In this document: positions 9,132 through 52,904 of the stretch, piece by piece
Layout of the letters: every line of letters begins with the position of its first letter
Numbering within the stretch: position 1 is the stretch's first letter
Source of the DNA: Candidatus Parvarchaeota archaeon
Lineage (GTDB): Archaea > Nanobdellota > Nanobdellia > Parvarchaeales > Parvarchaeaceae
Length of the DNA: 55,448 bases
Direction: 5' to 3'
Assembly (NCBI GenBank): GCA_023378865.1
Contig: JAMCSP010000018.1
Location: 1 to 55,448, forward strand
The notes under the pieces: generated by a model
Seen by the model: only the letters and a program-made list of their open reading frames with translations
Databases searched by the model: none
What the model was told of the DNA's origin: nothing
Made by a program: the position numbers and the translations under genes

Positions 9132-9168
9132 AAATAGATTTAAGTAAGTATAATTTAAATTATTATGT

Positions 9169-47034: not shown

Positions 47035-47104
47035 ATAATCTTAAAGTCTTCTAAGAAAATATCTATTATAAAAAGCTTTAATTTTACAATGTTCTATTGA
47101 TAGC

Positions 47105-48031
47105 ATGGTAATAAAAGCACCAAAATTAAAGGCCAATTCAAACATAAAGATAATCGCGCCTGCAAGTCCGCCTGATTTAAAAGAACTGTCAACAAGCATA
47201 AATCTGCTTAAAAAATTCGGTTTTAGAGTGTCTCTTGGTGAGAATCTGCGAAGATTGGTTCAGAGGGCAGATTTAGCTGCTCCTGACAAAGACAGGGCTG
47301 CAGAGCTTAACAATGCATTCAAAGACGATTCTGTAGACGCTATATTCTGTGCAAGAGGGGGATACGGTTCCATGAGAATACTGTCAGACATAGATTATGA
47401 TTCCATAAAAGCCCATCCTAAAATCTTTGTAGGGTACAGTGACATAACTGCTTTGCACCTCGCAATACATAAATTAACAGGCCTGATTACTTTCCATGGC
47501 CCTATGCCGGGAGTAGATGCCGATGAGATGCGAAAGCCTTCCTTTCAAAATGTGCTTTCGGTCTTAAAGGGAGAATCAAAGGACATAGCCAATAACATAA
47601 ATAGAGTAGTTAAATACATCGTTCCGGGAAAGGTCGAAGGGATAAGCGAGGGGACAAATATATCTTTGTTTGCTTCGTTAATAGGAACGGATTACATGCC
47701 GGATACCAAGGGTAAAATAGCCTTCTTTGAGGATATAGCTACTACCTCTGGTGATGTTGACAGGTATCTTTTCAGGTTGAAACTGGCAAAGGCCCTGGAC
47801 AAGTTTAACGGCTTTATATTTGGGGATTTTACTGACATACCAAAGTCAGAAGAAGTTCTTCCTTCTATGGAGGAAATAATAGAGGATTATATGCTAGATT
47901 TGAAAAAGCCATCATTATACGGCCTGCCTTTTGGTCATGGCGATGACCAGATGCTTATACCTCTTAACTCAAAAATGAGGATTTCCAGCGATGAGCCTTA
48001 TATAGAATTATTAGAGGATGTAGTAAACTAA
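47105..48031 (+). CDS. LD-carboxypeptidase / MccF-like serine peptidase (family S66)
   Basis: 308 aa. ARGGYGSMRIL, nucleophile motif FVGYSDITALH, FFEDIATTSGDVDRYL, His motif LPFGHG. Confidence 0.78.
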   Translation: MVIKAPKLKANSNIKIIAPASPPDLKELSTSINLLKKFGFRVSLGENLRRLVQRADLAAPDKDRAAELNNAFKDDSVDAIFCARGGYGSMRILSDIDYDSIKAHPKIFVGYSDITALHLAIHKLTGLITFHGPMPGVDADEMRKPSFQNVLSVLKGESKDIANNINRVVKYIVPGKVEGISEGTNISLFASLIGTDYMPDTKGKIAFFEDIATTSGDVDRYLFRLKLAKALDKFNGFIFGDFTDIPKSEEVLPSMEEIIEDYMLDLKKPSLYGLPFGHGDDQMLIPLNSKMRISSDEPYIELLEDVVN

Positions 48032-48036
48032 TTAAT

Positions 48037-49452
48037 CTATTCACTGCAGCAACTTAAATCTTCTACATTATGATAAAACGACAGAGCTCCAAGTTTCATT
48101 ATCTCGCTTAATGTTGGAAATACATGTACTGTATCTATTATATCATCTATTGTAAGCTTGAACTTCACTGCCAATACTGCTTCGTGTATTAAATCAGCAG
48201 CATTTTCTCCCACTATCTCTACTCCCAGTATCTGTTTCGTATTGGCATTTATTACCATCTTTATCAGTCCCCGGGTATCCTTTATTATGCCAGCTTTTGC
48301 CAGGTCCTTAAACATTACAGGCTGGCAGGCGCATCTTATGCCTTTATTGTTTGCTTCTTTATCTGTTAGTCCTACTCTTGCTGCCTCTGGAAAAGTAAAA
48401 ACGGCAGACGGCACAGAATTTAAGTCTACCGATAGCTTTTCCCTGCCAAATGCATTTACAGTTGCTTTGTTGCCTTCTGCAGCTGCCAATGCCTCTAACA
48501 TCGGTTCTCCCGTAACATCGCCTGCAGCGTATATCCCATCTACAGAGGTTTTCATGTACTTATCTATTTTTATAAAACCGCTTTCATTCAGTTTTATTCC
48601 CGTTGCAGTTAAGTTTAATTTTTCTATGTTTGGCGTTCTTCCCGTAGCCAGCAATATCTTTTCGGCTTTTACTTCTTGTTTTCTTCCCTTTACCGAAAAG
48701 TAAACATCAACCATTTCTTTAGACCCTAAAACCCGATCTATTTTAGCGTTTGTTATTATGTTTACTCCTTCATCTCTGAGGTACTGCTCAAGGTAATAGC
48801 TAACTTCAGGCTCCCAATTGGGCAATATCTTGTCACTTCTCTGCAGTAAGGTGACTTTTACGCCGAAATGGGAAAACATCTCTGCAAATTCAAGGCCAAG
48901 GGCCCTCCCTCCTATGATAACCATCGATTTAGGCAGTTTTTTCATTGAGAGTGCCTCTTCATTTGTAAGATACTTTATTTTTTCTATTCCGTTTATTTCA
49001 GGTATCCTGGCTCTCGCACCCGTTGCTATCAGTATCCTCTTTGCCTTTATCTCCTTTCCGTTGACCTCCAAAGTATTTTTATCAATAAAGCTTGCAAATT
49101 CATTTATGTACTTTACATTTTTGAGTTTTCCAAGTACCTTCTGGTACTTTGAGAAACGCATACTTCCAACGAGAAATTCTTTGTCCTCCATTATTTTGCC
49201 GAAGTTTTCTACCCTTGTGGAATAATATAAACCATCAAATCTATCCTTGTTTATTTTATCCAAAAAGTTTCCTGCTGTTATCAGTCTTTTACTAGGAACG
49301 CATCCAACATTTACACAGGTTCCTCCAAGCAGTGTTCCATTGGTTTCATTTTTTCCTATCATGACTGTTTTAATTCCAAATTCATCCGCTTTCAATGCAG
49401 CAGCAAATGCAGCAGCACCCTGCCCAATTATTGCATATTCATACTCTTCCAT
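48037..49452 (-). CDS. merA: mercuric reductase-like pyridine-nucleotide disulfide oxidoreductase (core only, no NmerA domain)
   Basis: 471 aa. IIGQGAAAFAAA FAD fold, redox disulfide GGTCVNVGCVPSK, C-terminal vicinal Cys tail ..EDLSCCSE. Confidence 0.75.
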   Translation of the reverse strand: MEEYEYAIIGQGAAAFAAALKADEFGIKTVMIGKNETNGTLLGGTCVNVGCVPSKRLITAGNFLDKINKDRFDGLYYSTRVENFGKIMEDKEFLVGSMRFSKYQKVLGKLKNVKYINEFASFIDKNTLEVNGKEIKAKRILIATGARARIPEINGIEKIKYLTNEEALSMKKLPKSMVIIGGRALGLEFAEMFSHFGVKVTLLQRSDKILPNWEPEVSYYLEQYLRDEGVNIITNAKIDRVLGSKEMVDVYFSVKGRKQEVKAEKILLATGRTPNIEKLNLTATGIKLNESGFIKIDKYMKTSVDGIYAAGDVTGEPMLEALAAAEGNKATVNAFGREKLSVDLNSVPSAVFTFPEAARVGLTDKEANNKGIRCACQPVMFKDLAKAGIIKDTRGLIKMVINANTKQILGVEIVGENAADLIHEAVLAVKFKLTIDDIIDTVHVFPTLSEIMKLGALSFYHNVEDLSCCSE

Positions 49453-49762
49453 TTTTTTCCTCCCTCAGTATACCGCACTTCTTCAGGTAAACTTCATAAT
49501 TTTTAACGTGGTTAGCCACTTCATCAACTAATTCTTTGGTTTCATTGTTAATCCTGTAAATCCTTTTCCTTCCCTCTTTTCTTACAGTTATGAATTTGCA
49601 GTTAAGCAAACATTTTAAATCATGTGATAAGTTAGTCTGCTCTACTTTTAGTTTTTGCTGAAGTTCTCCTGCACACAATTCTTTATCTCTCAGCTGCATT
49701 AGTATGTTAAATCTATTCCTGTTTGCAAATGCATCAAAAAAAAGATCCGTTGCGTTTTTCAT
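49439..49762 (-). CDS. ArsR/SmtB-family metalloregulator
   Basis: 107 aa. FANRNRFNILMQLRDKELCAGELQQKLKVEQTNLSHDLKCLLNCKFI (wHTH with Cys at the ArsR alpha-3 position, plus CxxxC). Confidence 0.8.
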   Translation of the reverse strand: MKNATDLFFDAFANRNRFNILMQLRDKELCAGELQQKLKVEQTNLSHDLKCLLNCKFITVRKEGRKRIYRINNETKELVDEVANHVKNYEVYLKKCGILREEKNGRV

Positions 49763-50310
49763 AAACCATTCTTCGATATTGCATTTTCAAGGTTTCCTAT
49801 TCCGGTTGCAATTCCTTCTCCAACATATAATATTTTTCCGCTGGGGCTTATCAGGTAGTAAATATCAAGCTGAAATGTCGGTGGAGTGTTATAAGCTATA
49901 GTCATGTTATAGCTTGCAACTCCCCCAGTTACATAGGTGTTATTGTTACCATATTCGGAAATGAACTGGGAGATCGGCATTCCTGGACTTCCAAGGTCAT
50001 TGTACTGCTCTAATTCCAATATCTTTACATTGTGCTCCTTGAAAAATGCAAGGTTGTCAGCCACTGCAGTATTCCCCTGCGCACAGCTGCCGCACCATGT
50101 TGCTACAAACCACAGAATAAGCGGCTCTCCTTTATAGTTGTTTAAGCTTTCAGTGCTTCCGTTTGCAAGCTGAAAAGTGTAATTTGGCGCAGTTTCGCCT
50201 ACAGACAGTTTAGTGGATTTTGCGTGGTTTAAAACGAAGAAATTTAGTATAAGAACTACTGCTATTACTAACACAACTGCATATAAAATATACTTCATCT
50301 TGATTTTCAT
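49759..50310 (-). CDS. membrane-anchored extracytoplasmic TlpA/ResA-like thiol:disulfide oxidoreductase (redoxin fold)
   Basis: 183 aa. N-terminal TM anchor. GETAPNYTFQLANGSTESLNNYKGEPLILWFVATWCGSCAQ. Confidence 0.75.
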   Translation of the reverse strand: MKIKMKYILYAVVLVIAVVLILNFFVLNHAKSTKLSVGETAPNYTFQLANGSTESLNNYKGEPLILWFVATWCGSCAQGNTAVADNLAFFKEHNVKILELEQYNDLGSPGMPISQFISEYGNNNTYVTGGVASYNMTIAYNTPPTFQLDIYYLISPSGKILYVGEGIATGIGNLENAISKNGL

Positions 50311-50852
50311 TCTTTAACCTCGCAGCAATCGTCTTTAGCGGCAGGGGTTATCCTGCAGCTTGCATTTATGTTCTTTGTTATCTGGACCAGGCCTATGTAT
50401 GCTATTATTACACCTGCTGCAATGAATCCCGGCCCGTAAACAGAAAATATAGACTGCAGCTTTCCAGTGTTTCCGACTATAAAAGACGTTGAAAACCCGA
50501 GTACGGCAAGCAATGAAGGTATAATACTTGTGCAGCATAAGCTGCTTGGCAATATTGCCCCGATTATTGAGCTTAAAGTCAGTTTTTTGCTCGTCTTTGC
50601 CTTTAGTTTATAGGAATAAACATTCATGGTTATAACTAAGCTAATCAGAAAAGACACTGCAAAAGCTGAAAGCAAATCAAAGTAAATATAATATGAACCG
50701 AAGTCTATTATCCCCGTAGCAGAACTTTCTAACAGGTAAAAATATAGAATAAATACTGCAGTAAATAAAATAGAAAATAGCAATGCATACCTTTTTAGGG
50801 TTATAACCCTCTTTATATCCTGAAGCATGTGAATATATGAAATATTTATCAT
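50307..50852 (-). CDS. four-TM membrane protein with intramembrane and C-terminal vicinal Cys pairs (MerT/MerF-like candidate transporter)
   Basis: 181 aa. TM3 LPSSLCCTSIIPSLLAVLGF. Cytoplasmic tail ASCRITPAAKDDCCEVKE. Positive-inside distribution places both termini in the cytoplasm. Confidence 0.45.
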   Translation of the reverse strand: MINISYIHMLQDIKRVITLKRYALLFSILFTAVFILYFYLLESSATGIIDFGSYYIYFDLLSAFAVSFLISLVITMNVYSYKLKAKTSKKLTLSSIIGAILPSSLCCTSIIPSLLAVLGFSTSFIVGNTGKLQSIFSVYGPGFIAAGVIIAYIGLVQITKNINASCRITPAAKDDCCEVKE

Positions 50853-50873
50853 ATATAAACTTTTTCATATTTC

Positions 50874-50887
50874 ATATTTTAAAATAT
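50874..50887. promoter_or_regulatory. 14-bp perfect palindrome in the divergent promoter of the Cys-relay operon (candidate ArsR operator)
   Basis: ATATTTTAAAATAT, preceded by tandem TTCATAT TTCATAT. AT-rich palindromes also arise by chance in this DNA. Confidence 0.25.
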
Positions 50888-50913
50888 TTAACCTAATAAA
50901 ATAAAGTAAGTTA

Positions 50914-51504
50914 ATGGATAACCAAAATAAAAGAAGAGCTAGCACTTATATTGTTTTAGCTGTTATATTTTTATTCATACTTCTTTTAGTTTACTATGCA
51001 TTAACTGCAGGCAACATAAAACAATTGTCCGTAGGAGTTACAAGCTGGTATTTGGCAAGCGCTTCAAAATCATTTTATCCAATAAACATAGAAAGCATAA
51101 CAAGCGTTTTCAACAGTTCAAACAATCAGCTTTACCTTTTAGTAAAGCTAAAAAACAGCGGCAGTTCGGCTATCGAATACCTTTCAGGATGCATATCCCC
51201 TTTTTCGGGAGTTGTTTATCCTAGCAGTATAGCAAACTTAACTTATGAGAAGGGAGTAGCCTCATGTAATGCTATAGTTTTAGATCAGCTTTTGCCAAAT
51301 CAAACCGCTACGCTTCAATGGCCTTTATCCCCGCAGATGATAGAGGTATTAAAGGCTGGAAACTTTGATGTAAACCTTACTTTTCCATTTAGTTCCTATA
51401 GCAATATAACAAAAACCTGCCCTAGGCTGAATACTACCTGTCCCGCTCTAAATGACTTTACAGGAAACGCAACAATCCATGTATCTATTTCTGCAGTTAA
51501 TTAA
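50914..51504 (+). CDS. N-terminally anchored or secreted small sequon-rich protein, unknown function
   Basis: 196 aa. MDNQNKRRASTYIVLAVIFLFILLLVYYAL anchor, four Cys, several N-x-S/T sequons. Confidence 0.5.
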   Translation: MDNQNKRRASTYIVLAVIFLFILLLVYYALTAGNIKQLSVGVTSWYLASASKSFYPINIESITSVFNSSNNQLYLLVKLKNSGSSAIEYLSGCISPFSGVVYPSSIANLTYEKGVASCNAIVLDQLLPNQTATLQWPLSPQMIEVLKAGNFDVNLTFPFSSYSNITKTCPRLNTTCPALNDFTGNATIHVSISAVN

Positions 51505-51659
51505 ACTTCAAAGCATCGGCTGGAAAGCTATATAAACCTTGAAAAGTCTAATAATAATATAGTAAGTCATACAAAGTGACTTTGGTCTATTAGACCTTAA
51601 ATCACGATTAACAATTTGGCCTAAGTGGGCCTTTTTGAATGAATAGGAGGTGTTGAATT

Positions 51660-52841
51660 ATGGCAAAGATAGGACCTACTTCTTTCAAGTATATCCTTCA
51701 TGCAAAGTTTACTGCCGATAGTCTGATTGATAAACCAGACGTTATAGGAGCAGTATTTGGACAGACAGAGGGTCTGTTGGGTGAAGAACTTGACTTAAGA
51801 GAAGCGCAGAAAAACGGAAAAATAGGAAGAATAAACGTAGAAAGTTCATCCGCAGGTGGAAAAACCAACGGTGAAATAACCATACCTACTTCTTTGGGGA
51901 TGGCAGAGACAGCATTGATAGGAGCAGCAATAGAAACAATTGATAGAATAGGGCCTTCAAAGGCCACTGTTTCGGTTGACAAGATAGAAGACGTAAGAAT
52001 TTCAAAGAGGGAGTATATAATGAACAGGGCTCAGAAGCTGCTTGAAGAGGCTATGAAAACATCAGAGGTGGATACTACAGAATTGCTGCAGAAACTTTAT
52101 GAGGAAGTAAGGCAGAAGGAATTCGTAGAATACGGCTCTGAAAAATTGCCTGCTGGTCCGGATTTGGAGGATTCTGAAGAAATAATTGTAGTTGAAGGGA
52201 GAGCAGATGTGATGAATATGCTCAAGCATGGCTTCTCAAATGTAATCGGAATGAACGGTACTAACATACCTAAAACGGTTATTGAACTAAGCAGAAAGAA
52301 AATAGTTACCCTTTTCGTTGATGGAGACAGGGGCGGTGACATGATAATAAACTCTTTTATCCAGCAGGGACATGTAGACTTTATAGCAAAAGCGCCTTCG
52401 GGAACAGAAGTAGAGGAACTGTCAAAGAAGGAAATAAACCAGGCCTTGCGTGCAAAGGTTCCAATAGAGGAATATGATCCATCTTTGAAAAGAGAATCGG
52501 CAGCTCCTAGGAAACAGGCTCAGTCAGCTCCTGTAGAAGTTCCGCAGGAAATAAAAGAGAAGGTTACTCCCCTGGTAAATGATATAATCGGCACAAGAGG
52601 GGCATTCCTTGTAAATGACAAGTTTGAGATACTTGGAAGGATACCTTATAAGGGAGTTGAAGATGCCATACTAAATTTAGAGAATATATACATGCTTGTT
52701 CTTGATGGTCTGGTAACTGATGAAATAGCAAAGGCAGCCGAAGAAAGCGAGATAACCTATGTCATAGGAAGCAGGGTTCTGGCAAGCAGTTCATCTGTAA
52801 AACTACTTTCGTATGATGACATTGGCTACAAATATAGATAA
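51660..52841 (+). CDS. dnaG: archaeal DnaG (Toprim-domain primase/exosome-associated protein)
   Basis: 393 aa. Toprim motifs IIVVEGRADVMNMLKHG and LFVDGDRGGDMI. AGGAGGTG Shine-Dalgarno sequence 8 nt upstream. Confidence 0.88.
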   Translation: MAKIGPTSFKYILHAKFTADSLIDKPDVIGAVFGQTEGLLGEELDLREAQKNGKIGRINVESSSAGGKTNGEITIPTSLGMAETALIGAAIETIDRIGPSKATVSVDKIEDVRISKREYIMNRAQKLLEEAMKTSEVDTTELLQKLYEEVRQKEFVEYGSEKLPAGPDLEDSEEIIVVEGRADVMNMLKHGFSNVIGMNGTNIPKTVIELSRKKIVTLFVDGDRGGDMIINSFIQQGHVDFIAKAPSGTEVEELSKKEINQALRAKVPIEEYDPSLKRESAAPRKQAQSAPVEVPQEIKEKVTPLVNDIIGTRGAFLVNDKFEILGRIPYKGVEDAILNLENIYMLVLDGLVTDEIAKAAEESEITYVIGSRVLASSSSVKLLSYDDIGYKYR

Positions 52842-52904
52842 AGGCAGAAAAGTTTTGGTTAACTGTAAAGACTCTCTATCAAATGAATTACTGGAGGATA
52901 AGGT

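Follow-up and report, generated by a model that had tools for sequence, protein, structure and literature searches.

A Parvarchaeota mer operon with a candidate membrane protein–redoxin relay for Hg(II) uptake

How does Hg(II) reach mercuric reductase in archaea whose mer operons appear to hold no transporter? Boyd & Barkay 2012 describe archaeal mer operons as lacking Hg transporters apart from one merP homologue, and a four-gene locus from a Candidatus Parvarchaeota archaeon now offers a possible answer. The locus lies within a 55,448-nucleotide stretch of contig JAMCSP010000018.1 (assembly GCA_023378865.1), here called the window, which has a guanine-plus-cytosine (GC) content of 35-40% and whose genes find their nearest relatives in 'Candidatus Parvarchaeum acidiphilum ARMAN-4' and other Parvarchaeota metagenome-assembled genomes (MAGs). 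By these relatives the host is a DPANN archaeon of the ARMAN type, an ultrasmall acid-mine organism. On its minus strand, open reading frames (ORFs) listed from the sequence encode a membrane protein (50307-50852, 181 aa), a thioredoxin-fold protein or redoxin (49759-50310, 183 aa), a regulator (49439-49762, 107 aa) and a reductase (48037-49452, 471 aa). The original prediction, made from the letters of this DNA, read the four genes as a mer-type cysteine relay in an undescribed archaeal architecture, which agrees with the published absence of archaeal transporters. The overlaps of 4, 4 and 14 nt that it described follow from the ORF coordinates, and the motifs that it quoted (LPSSLCCTSIIPSLLAVLGF, ASCRITPAAKDDCCEVKE, WFVATWCGSCAQ, ELCAGEL, CLLNC, GGTCVNVGCVPSK and DLSCCSE) are all present in the translations. 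Gene identities, conserved cysteines, predicted topology, linkage across genomes and a conserved operator-like repeat come directly from the data, and together they favour, with a probability of roughly 0.6, a mer operon in which the membrane protein and the redoxin form an Hg(II) uptake relay that substitutes for MerT and MerP.

The reductase (48037-49452, minus strand) is, judged by its equivalog score and signature residues, a genuine and ordinary archaeal-type MerA orthologue of the catalytic-core-only form, with a predicted capacity to reduce Hg(II). It scores 540.8 bits against the NCBIfam MerA equivalog TIGR02053 (cut-off 454.45), while the next-best family, lipoamide dehydrogenase, gives 386.8 bits and stays short of its own cut-off of 408.8; no other NCBIfam disulfide-reductase model is reached at its cut-off. 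The best solved relatives are likewise MerA structures, from Lysinibacillus (5x1y), Metallosphaera sedula (4ywo) and Tn501 (1zk7). MerA was defined by Boyd & Barkay 2012 through a redox-active Cys pair, a C-terminal vicinal Cys pair, Tyr264 (Bacillus numbering) and either Tyr605 in bacteria or Phe605 in archaea, for which the 471-aa protein has Cys46/Cys51, Cys468-Cys469, Tyr103 and, at the Tyr605 position, Phe445. Its Glu320 is the partner residue of the E317/F441' pair that Artz et al. 2015 assign to thermophilic and archaeal MerA, as against V/Y' in mesophilic bacteria. The same features recur in the reductases that adjoin relatives of the membrane protein elsewhere: all 46 full-length sequences keep the redox Cys pair, the Tyr264 equivalent and the C-terminal CC without exception, every one of the 20 DPANN enzymes has the E/F' pair, V/Y' is seen in 25 of 26 bacterial enzymes, and 11 partner enzymes carry an NmerA domain with the GM[TS]CxxC motif. 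The identification as MerA with a CC tail therefore stands.

The proposal that every station of the relay was built from non-orthologous parts fared less well. It is overstated, as the MerA is orthologous and both a core-only MerA without NmerA and an ArsR-type regulator are the published archaeal norm (Boyd & Barkay 2012); the new parts are the membrane protein and the redoxin. An earlier study whose scope left accessory genes aside had already recorded MerA in genomes of 10 Parvarchaeota and 22 Micrarchaeota, and a literature search on redoxin or TlpA proteins in mer operons and on ARMAN mer genes returned MerA inventories only. By the literature and curated libraries searched, what is already known here is MerA, its core-only architecture and the ArsR regulator, and what is undescribed is the pair of membrane protein and redoxin. 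The Sulfolobus solfataricus merR-merH-merA-merI system makes the point: it too has an ArsR-type repressor and a MerA reduced to its core, with Phe where bacterial enzymes have Tyr605, but uses a TRASH-domain chaperone and no transporter where the Parvarchaeota operon has a dedicated membrane protein and a redoxin.

The membrane protein has four hydrophobic segments and an N-in/C-in topology by the positive-inside rule applied across 26 and 102 homologues. Its AlphaFold2 (AF2) model (predicted local distance difference test, pLDDT, 82) is a helical bundle in which the third transmembrane helix (TM3) is broken at a vicinal Cys pair, and topology and model bear out the four helices first proposed. 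In the numbering of the 181-aa ORF the pair is Cys106-Cys107, and a tail predicted to be cytoplasmic carries Cys166 and Cys177-Cys178. Forty close homologues are all from DPANN archaea and all named 'hypothetical', and an exhaustive profile search widens the family to 127 cluster representatives, mostly four-helix proteins of 165-235 aa with LPSxLCC[TS]PxxP[TS] in TM3. Across 102 members the vicinal CC are the only invariant residues; a tail Cys pair is usual about 60 residues further on, as CC, CxxC or Cx5C, many members having the Cx5C form of MerT.

No Pfam or NCBIfam family is reached at its cut-off by the window protein or the 102 members. Profile searches matched no non-metal family in either library, and CcdA/DsbD gave no match at E<=0.1 for the window protein or at E<=0.01 for the 102 members. 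The only sub-threshold matches that recur among members are to MerT, MerTP and MerC, the MerC model itself contributing one stray match among the 102, while the MerF and MerE models match none of them. The MerT model PF02411 has no match in the window protein itself but matches 10 of 26 DPANN members, the best at E 1.2e-5, with TM3-TM4 lying on MerT positions 5-76. Profile-profile comparison by hhalign with 16 MerT sequences (E 4.7e-5) places the CC on Cys24/25 and the tail cysteines on Cys76/Cys82, GFS on GFS and YGPGFI on YRPIFI. MerT has three helices, with its CC in TM1 and Cys76/Cys82 in the cytoplasmic loop between TM2 and TM3, and the alignment covers TM1-TM2 and this loop. The CC helix (the third of four in the archaeal protein), the second helix and the cytoplasmic Cys pair align, two N-terminal helices are extra and TM3 of MerT has no counterpart. 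The family is thus distinct and unannotated, and is probably a distant relative of MerT with two added N-terminal helices and MerT TM3 unmatched. Where the membrane protein was first thought merely to resemble MerT or MerF, the PF02411 and hhalign results make it probably a distant MerT homologue.

The resemblance extends to the layout of known systems. In the MerT-MerP systems of Tn501 and Tn21, an extracytoplasmic CxxC protein likewise accompanies a membrane protein with a vicinal CC, followed by Pro, in a transmembrane helix, and some 50-60 residues on a further Cys pair facing the cytoplasm feeds the C-terminal CC of MerA. MerF and MerC/MerE are also small membrane proteins with a CC in a helix and a C-terminal cytoplasmic CC, and the MerF layout is that of the C-terminal half of the window protein, which differs in having four helices and an obligatory redoxin partner. 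MerH of Mycobacterium marinum pMM23 (WP_012390401) is a 171-aa Hg(2+) transporter beside a core-only MerA and an ArsR-type regulator and was considered as an identity for the window protein; it was rejected, as its sequence is unrelated (hhalign probability 0.5%, BLASTP E 0.96). The CC of MerH is, besides, in the first helix, and MerH has no redoxin partner. Three candidate 'Rosetta-stone' fusions among family members (P0058, P0087 and P0106) were likewise set aside because their extra N-terminal CCxGP helix is not recognised as MerT. A further member, P0166, is a predicted 276-aa protein joining NmerA and the MerA N-terminus to the last two helices and tail of the membrane family; it is a product, most likely, of a frameshift or of chimeric gene calling and no true fusion.

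The proposed partner and extracytoplasmic Hg(II) receptor (49759-50310, minus strand) has the active site W-C73-G-S-C76 and matches Pfam Redoxin (40.2 bits, cut-off 26.6) and AhpC-TSA (38.7 bits). ResA is the nearest NCBIfam subfamily model (E 3.5e-15, 56.3 bits against a cut-off of 170), TlpA (21.5 against 230 bits) and DsbE (13.3 against 123 bits) also remaining below threshold, and the nearest solved relative is Bacillus subtilis ResA (1st9), aligned over residues 37-169. In 31 homologues the WCxxC motif is conserved and its CxxC invariant, as is either an N-terminal anchor in archaea or a signal peptide in bacteria, and because of this conserved anchor or signal peptide the protein is predicted to face outwards. 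It is no MerP by fold: MerP is a soluble HMA-fold protein with GMTCxxC, whereas the membrane-anchored thioredoxin-fold protein has no HMA match, and ORFs with an HMA motif are absent from the window save for one spurious out-of-frame match. Trp67, Pro144, Asp149 and Tyr151 are also invariant, with a D-[IV]-Y-Y-L motif in the region of residues 144-151. HMMER places Asp149 on the cis-Pro of ResA, an ambiguous alignment given that some homologues have Pro right before Asp; an Asp at this position would suggest a metal-binding rather than a disulfide-exchange site. A single-sequence model of the redoxin reached pLDDT 47 and was unusable. In the high-GC bacterial loci described below, a second, paralogous membrane-anchored redoxin usually lies upstream of the membrane gene (L044, L060, L064, L100, L101, L117 and others), with G-C-A-S-C and TPD.YFLL where the downstream redoxin has C[PS][SG]C.

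The kinship with ResA and TlpA raises a different explanation, a transmembrane reducing conduit of the DsbD/CcdA-ResA kind, in which the membrane protein passes reducing equivalents and not metal to the redoxin. Electrons would come from the C-terminal CC of MerA or from thioredoxin through the tail and TM3 cysteines, and the redoxin would keep surface thiols reduced, or repair surface proteins damaged by Hg or oxidants, in an oxidising, acidic and metal-rich habitat; the linkage to MerA would then reflect a shared stress regulon or a role of MerA as electron donor. A membrane Cys protein next to an anchored ResA-like CxxC redoxin is indeed the arrangement of CcdA/DsbD with ResA, TlpA or CcmG, and ResA and TlpA, the closest characterised relatives, are extracytoplasmic reductants that need a membrane thiol relay. 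The frequent presence of two paralogous redoxins in bacterial loci is also what several extracytoplasmic clients would lead one to expect. Yet the invariant feature of the membrane family is a vicinal Cys-Cys followed by Pro, within a single helix. This is the hallmark of MerT, MerF and MerC, whereas CcdA/DsbD has one Cys in each of two helices, and two-coordinate Hg(II) would be better served by a vicinal pair than a disulfide would. Among the profile matches only those to Hg transporters recur, no Hg-specific MerA residue is lacking from the partner reductases, which often also have the metal-binding NmerA domain, and the genetic ties are to MerA and to thiophilic-metal sensors or MerR rather than to cytochrome c maturation. 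Canonical MerT and MerP are, moreover, always absent, which points to substitution. Weighing these points we regard the reducing conduit as rather unlikely.

Whether the four-gene block is more than an accident of one contig was addressed through its linkage in other genomes. A scan of species-representative genomes returned 29 loci, which were compared by tblastn with the four window proteins; metagenomes were scanned with a profile built from an 18-sequence high-GC subset, and their statistics are biased to that clade. The redoxin gene directly adjoins the membrane gene in 21/21 Parvarchaeota genome loci, 7/7 other genome loci and 34/44 metagenome loci, the last figure being a lower bound owing to ORF over-calling in DNA of 75% GC. 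On contigs with room for it, a CC-tailed MerA lies within 3.6 kb in 10 of 14 Parvarchaeota, 4 of 4 other genomes and 11 of 16 metagenome loci, or 25 of the 34 loci with enough flanking sequence. Most Parvarchaeota, ARMAN-4 and ARMAN-5 included, have the order membrane protein-redoxin-ArsR-MerA, and the Micrarchaeota have the same. Three bacterial MAGs show ArsR-membrane protein-redoxin-MerA, their MerA sharing just 38% identity, in one bacterial MAG the MerA gene next to the pair is divergently oriented, and metagenome contig L037 has ArsR-MerA-membrane protein-redoxin. The conjugative plasmid pACMV1 of Acidiphilium multivorum (RefSeq) carries a divergent MerR-family regulator, an HMA-domain merA, a 'redoxin domain-containing protein' and a 'hypothetical protein' of the membrane family, and 80 further metagenome loci, of median GC 75%, are similarly arranged. 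This plasmid also encodes, between merR and merA (L036:2190-2702), a 170-aa Cys-rich hypothetical membrane protein (AACC; LPCAVTCALGLCALGLC) with no Pfam match, which may be another uncharacterised mer accessory protein.

Because the genes are adjacent in 28 species-level genomes and dozens of metagenome contigs, the four-gene block is far beyond chance, and the co-conservation whose absence would have counted against the original prediction is found across archaea and bacteria, in rearranged orders. The plainest competing account holds that the membrane protein and the redoxin are chance or operon-packing neighbours of an ordinary ArsR-merA operon. DPANN genomes are gene-dense and translational overlaps in them are common, so a compact genome of this kind could produce such neighbours; but the membrane and redoxin genes adjoin each other in 28/28 genome loci, and the MerA link is kept across domains, gene orders, regulator types and a GC range from 36% to 75%, so that the comparative data effectively refute this account and leave it a negligible probability. 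Canonical MerT or MerP ORFs were found in none of the 120 loci. Because they are absent from all loci, the pair would appear to replace MerT and MerP rather than add to them, beside archaeal- as well as bacterial-type MerA and under ArsR- or MerR-type control.

The regulator (49439-49762, minus strand) is by sequence an ArsR/SmtB metalloregulator, scoring 80.7 bits against the NCBIfam HTH_metalloreg model NF033788 (cut-off 55) and 37.5 bits against PF01022 (HTH_5, cut-off 22). The assignment to the ArsR type made at the outset is upheld, and regulators of this type are established for mer operons of Sulfolobus, Streptomyces, Bacteroidetes and Actinobacteria (Boyd & Barkay 2012). Against the CmtR model the protein gives E 2.9e-11 and 43 bits, under the 150-bit equivalog cut-off, and it aligns without gaps to CmtR (PDB 2jsc) at an offset of +6, with Cys51, Cys55 and Cys96 on CmtR positions 57, 61 and 102, which we take to be the Cd/Pb ligands. 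CmtR (Rv1994c), an alpha4C-site Cd/Pb sensor, thus shares the Cys-x3-Cys in the recognition-helix region and the equally spaced C-terminal Cys, and differs in that the window regulator falls far below the equivalog cut-off and belongs to a mer context. Among aligned regulators of 20 loci, Cys51-x3-Cys55 (CLLNC) and Cys96 are kept in Parvarchaeota, Micrarchaeota and bacteria, while Cys30, in the ELCAGEL motif noted at the outset, is confined to Parvarchaeota; the conserved cysteines predicted to be sensory are CLLNC and Cys96 instead. A three-thiolate CmtR-like site for Hg(II) sensing is plausible on this evidence, and the protein is a candidate Hg(II)-responsive repressor.

The same likeness to a Cd/Pb sensor would also be expected of a surface sequestration or broader soft-metal system (Hg, Cd, Pb, As(III)) that is coupled to MerA only sometimes, the metals being held at the surface or passed to a cytosolic thiol buffer or to the CmtR-like sensor. 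Loci without MerA are in keeping with such a role, as are hosts that, by their source names, come from polymetallic acid mine drainage and hot springs. Set against it, the neighbouring enzyme is specifically MerA at 25 of 34 loci, and genes for Cd, Pb or As efflux were not seen in the few loci whose gene lists were read, with no systematic screen made. A soft-metal role of this breadth seems to us distinctly unlikely.

Several results nevertheless weigh against an Hg(II) uptake relay. The similarity to MerT is distant: the best family member reaches 25.7 bits against PF02411, whose cut-off is 32.9, and the NCBIfam MerT model NF010314 gives at most 17.8 bits against 150. The hhalign probability is 68%, Foldseek with the AF2 model finds nothing in the PDB better than E 1.7, and the family profile has no meaningful match in the PDB, where MerF too goes undetected. 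ResA, the closest characterised relative of the redoxin, is a disulfide reductase and not a metal carrier. MerA, finally, is missing from some loci: L004-L006, L019, L022 and L025 carry the membrane protein, redoxin and ArsR genes alone, and L028 (Rehaiarchaeum) has the membrane protein-redoxin pair by itself among housekeeping genes. Where no reductase is present, an Hg(II) importer ought to do harm, unless the genome has MerA at another site. L004-L006, L022 and L025 are syntenic with window positions 47100-52900, with 76 bp between ArsR and an LD-carboxypeptidase gene. The copies in all these MerA-less loci retain all cysteines and show low non-synonymous (dN) and saturated synonymous divergence (dS), as in MerA-containing lineages, which indicates purifying selection. 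The persistence of the pair without a nearby MerA in about a quarter of loci, and without any regulator in L028, is what a reducing conduit would allow, and the MerA-less loci therefore keep both the DsbD/CcdA-like conduit and the broader soft-metal role alive.

A candidate ArsR operator is the inverted repeat TATATGA-N8-TCATATA at 50834-50855, with one match in the window against 0.02 expected. Its shorter form, ATATGA-N8-TCATAT, is present exactly once in each of 26 Parvarchaeota and 2 Micrarchaeota loci and in every one marks the 5' edge of the membrane gene, even where the upstream DNA is otherwise unrelated. The repeat overlaps codons 1-8 of the 181-aa ORF and a TATA-box-like element, TTTATATA (50852-50859, minus strand), that is kept in 18 orthologous Parvarchaeota loci and whose centre lies about 27 nt upstream of the Met9 ATG at 50828. 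Because this spacing is the usual archaeal promoter geometry, we infer that TTTATATA is the TATA box and that transcription starts near 50828 with a leaderless transcript. Most homologues begin at the equivalent of Met9, and the membrane protein, the proposed MerT-like Hg(II) transporter, likely does so too, as a 173-aa product (50307-50828, minus strand). A leaderless 173-aa product, and a predicted repressor site at 50834-50855 that would block the promoter, are both suggested by the conservation of repeat and start together with the TATA-like spacing. Codons 1-8 (50829-50852; MINISYIH, MKKISYN in other clades) are the translation of the conserved inverted repeat, and gene callers therefore differ on the start, giving 173 or 181-185 aa.

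A different element, the 14-nt palindrome ATATTTTAAAATAT at 50874-50887, had been put forward as the operator. The palindrome is real and perfect, but it is probably not the operator: it is made up entirely of A and T, the window has five other perfect 14-nt palindromes (the six lie at 9150, 22068, 30099, 35173, 50797 and 50874), and it is missing upstream of every orthologous operon except that of L007, whose sequence here is almost the same as that of the window. The conserved element is the other inverted repeat.

These elements can be joined into a model for Hg(II) capture, import and reduction, in which we infer which way the metal travels, that the redoxin and the regulator bind Hg(II), and each transfer from one site to the next. 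Without Hg(II), the ArsR/CmtR-type repressor would sit on the inverted repeat at 50834-50855, over the TATA box and the start of transcription, and binding of Hg(II) to the three conserved thiolates Cys51, Cys55 and Cys96' would relieve repression. Outside the cell, the CxxC of the anchored thioredoxin-fold protein would capture Hg(II) in the role of MerP and pass it to Cys106-Cys107 in TM3 of the membrane protein, which would act as the first-helix CC does in MerT. From there the metal may move to Cys166 and Cys177-178 of the cytoplasmic tail, the putative counterparts of Cys76/Cys82 in MerT, then to MerA, first at its C-terminal Cys468-Cys469 and next at the flavin-site pair Cys46/Cys51, where NAD(P)H would reduce Hg(II) to volatile Hg(0).

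The wider form of this proposal is that the membrane protein and its anchored thioredoxin-fold partner constitute a previously unrecognised two-component Hg(II) capture-and-import system replacing MerT/MerP in Parvarchaeota, Micrarchaeota, Vulcanimicrobiota-type MAGs, high-GC soil bacteria and Acidiphilium plasmids. Archaea would thereby gain their first described dedicated mercury transporter, and a thioredoxin fold would for the first time be found serving as an extracellular Hg(II) receptor; we consider the case for this proposal evenly balanced. Surveys of mer operons list merT, merP, merC, merF, merE, merG and merH and conclude that archaeal operons have no transporters; the pair escapes them because it is annotated only as a 'hypothetical protein' and a 'redoxin domain-containing protein'. 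It nonetheless accompanies a signature-complete MerA in DPANN archaea, in soil and hot-spring bacteria and on the conjugative plasmid of a cultured acidophile. As an uptake system it would explain how Hg(II) is acquired in seemingly transporter-less mer operons, add a marker for metagenomic inventories of Hg cycling and provide a new Hg-binding scaffold for biosensing or remediation, with Acidiphilium multivorum pACMV1 or expression in Escherichia coli as a tractable test system. Should the pair instead carry reductant, with a MerA-type enzyme as the driver, it would represent a new minimal alternative to DsbD/CcdA.

The surroundings of the operon hold some further features. The 55-kb window (1-55448) contains no tRNA genes and no Rfam families at the gathering threshold. 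Divergent from the operon, on the plus strand, a 196-aa protein (50914-51504) is anchored at its N-terminus, contains several Cys along with numerous N-x-[ST] sites, and is without family assignment. Its gene is syntenic in loci at the same chromosomal site, as a 203-aa gene in L004-L006, and is probably not part of the system because in L001 the four-gene block occurs without it. Comparison of window positions 47100-51560 with L007 reveals a sharp mosaic of nucleotide identity. From 51560 down to about 50211 identity is 95-100%, a stretch that takes in the divergent 196-aa gene, the promoter and the membrane gene and ends ~100 nt into the redoxin gene. For the remainder of the redoxin gene and ArsR the figure falls to 67-73%, for merA it is 73-85%, and beyond 47935 it is about 52%. 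Recombination with a breakpoint in the redoxin gene, and an exchange of the cassette between lineages, are implied by this pattern.

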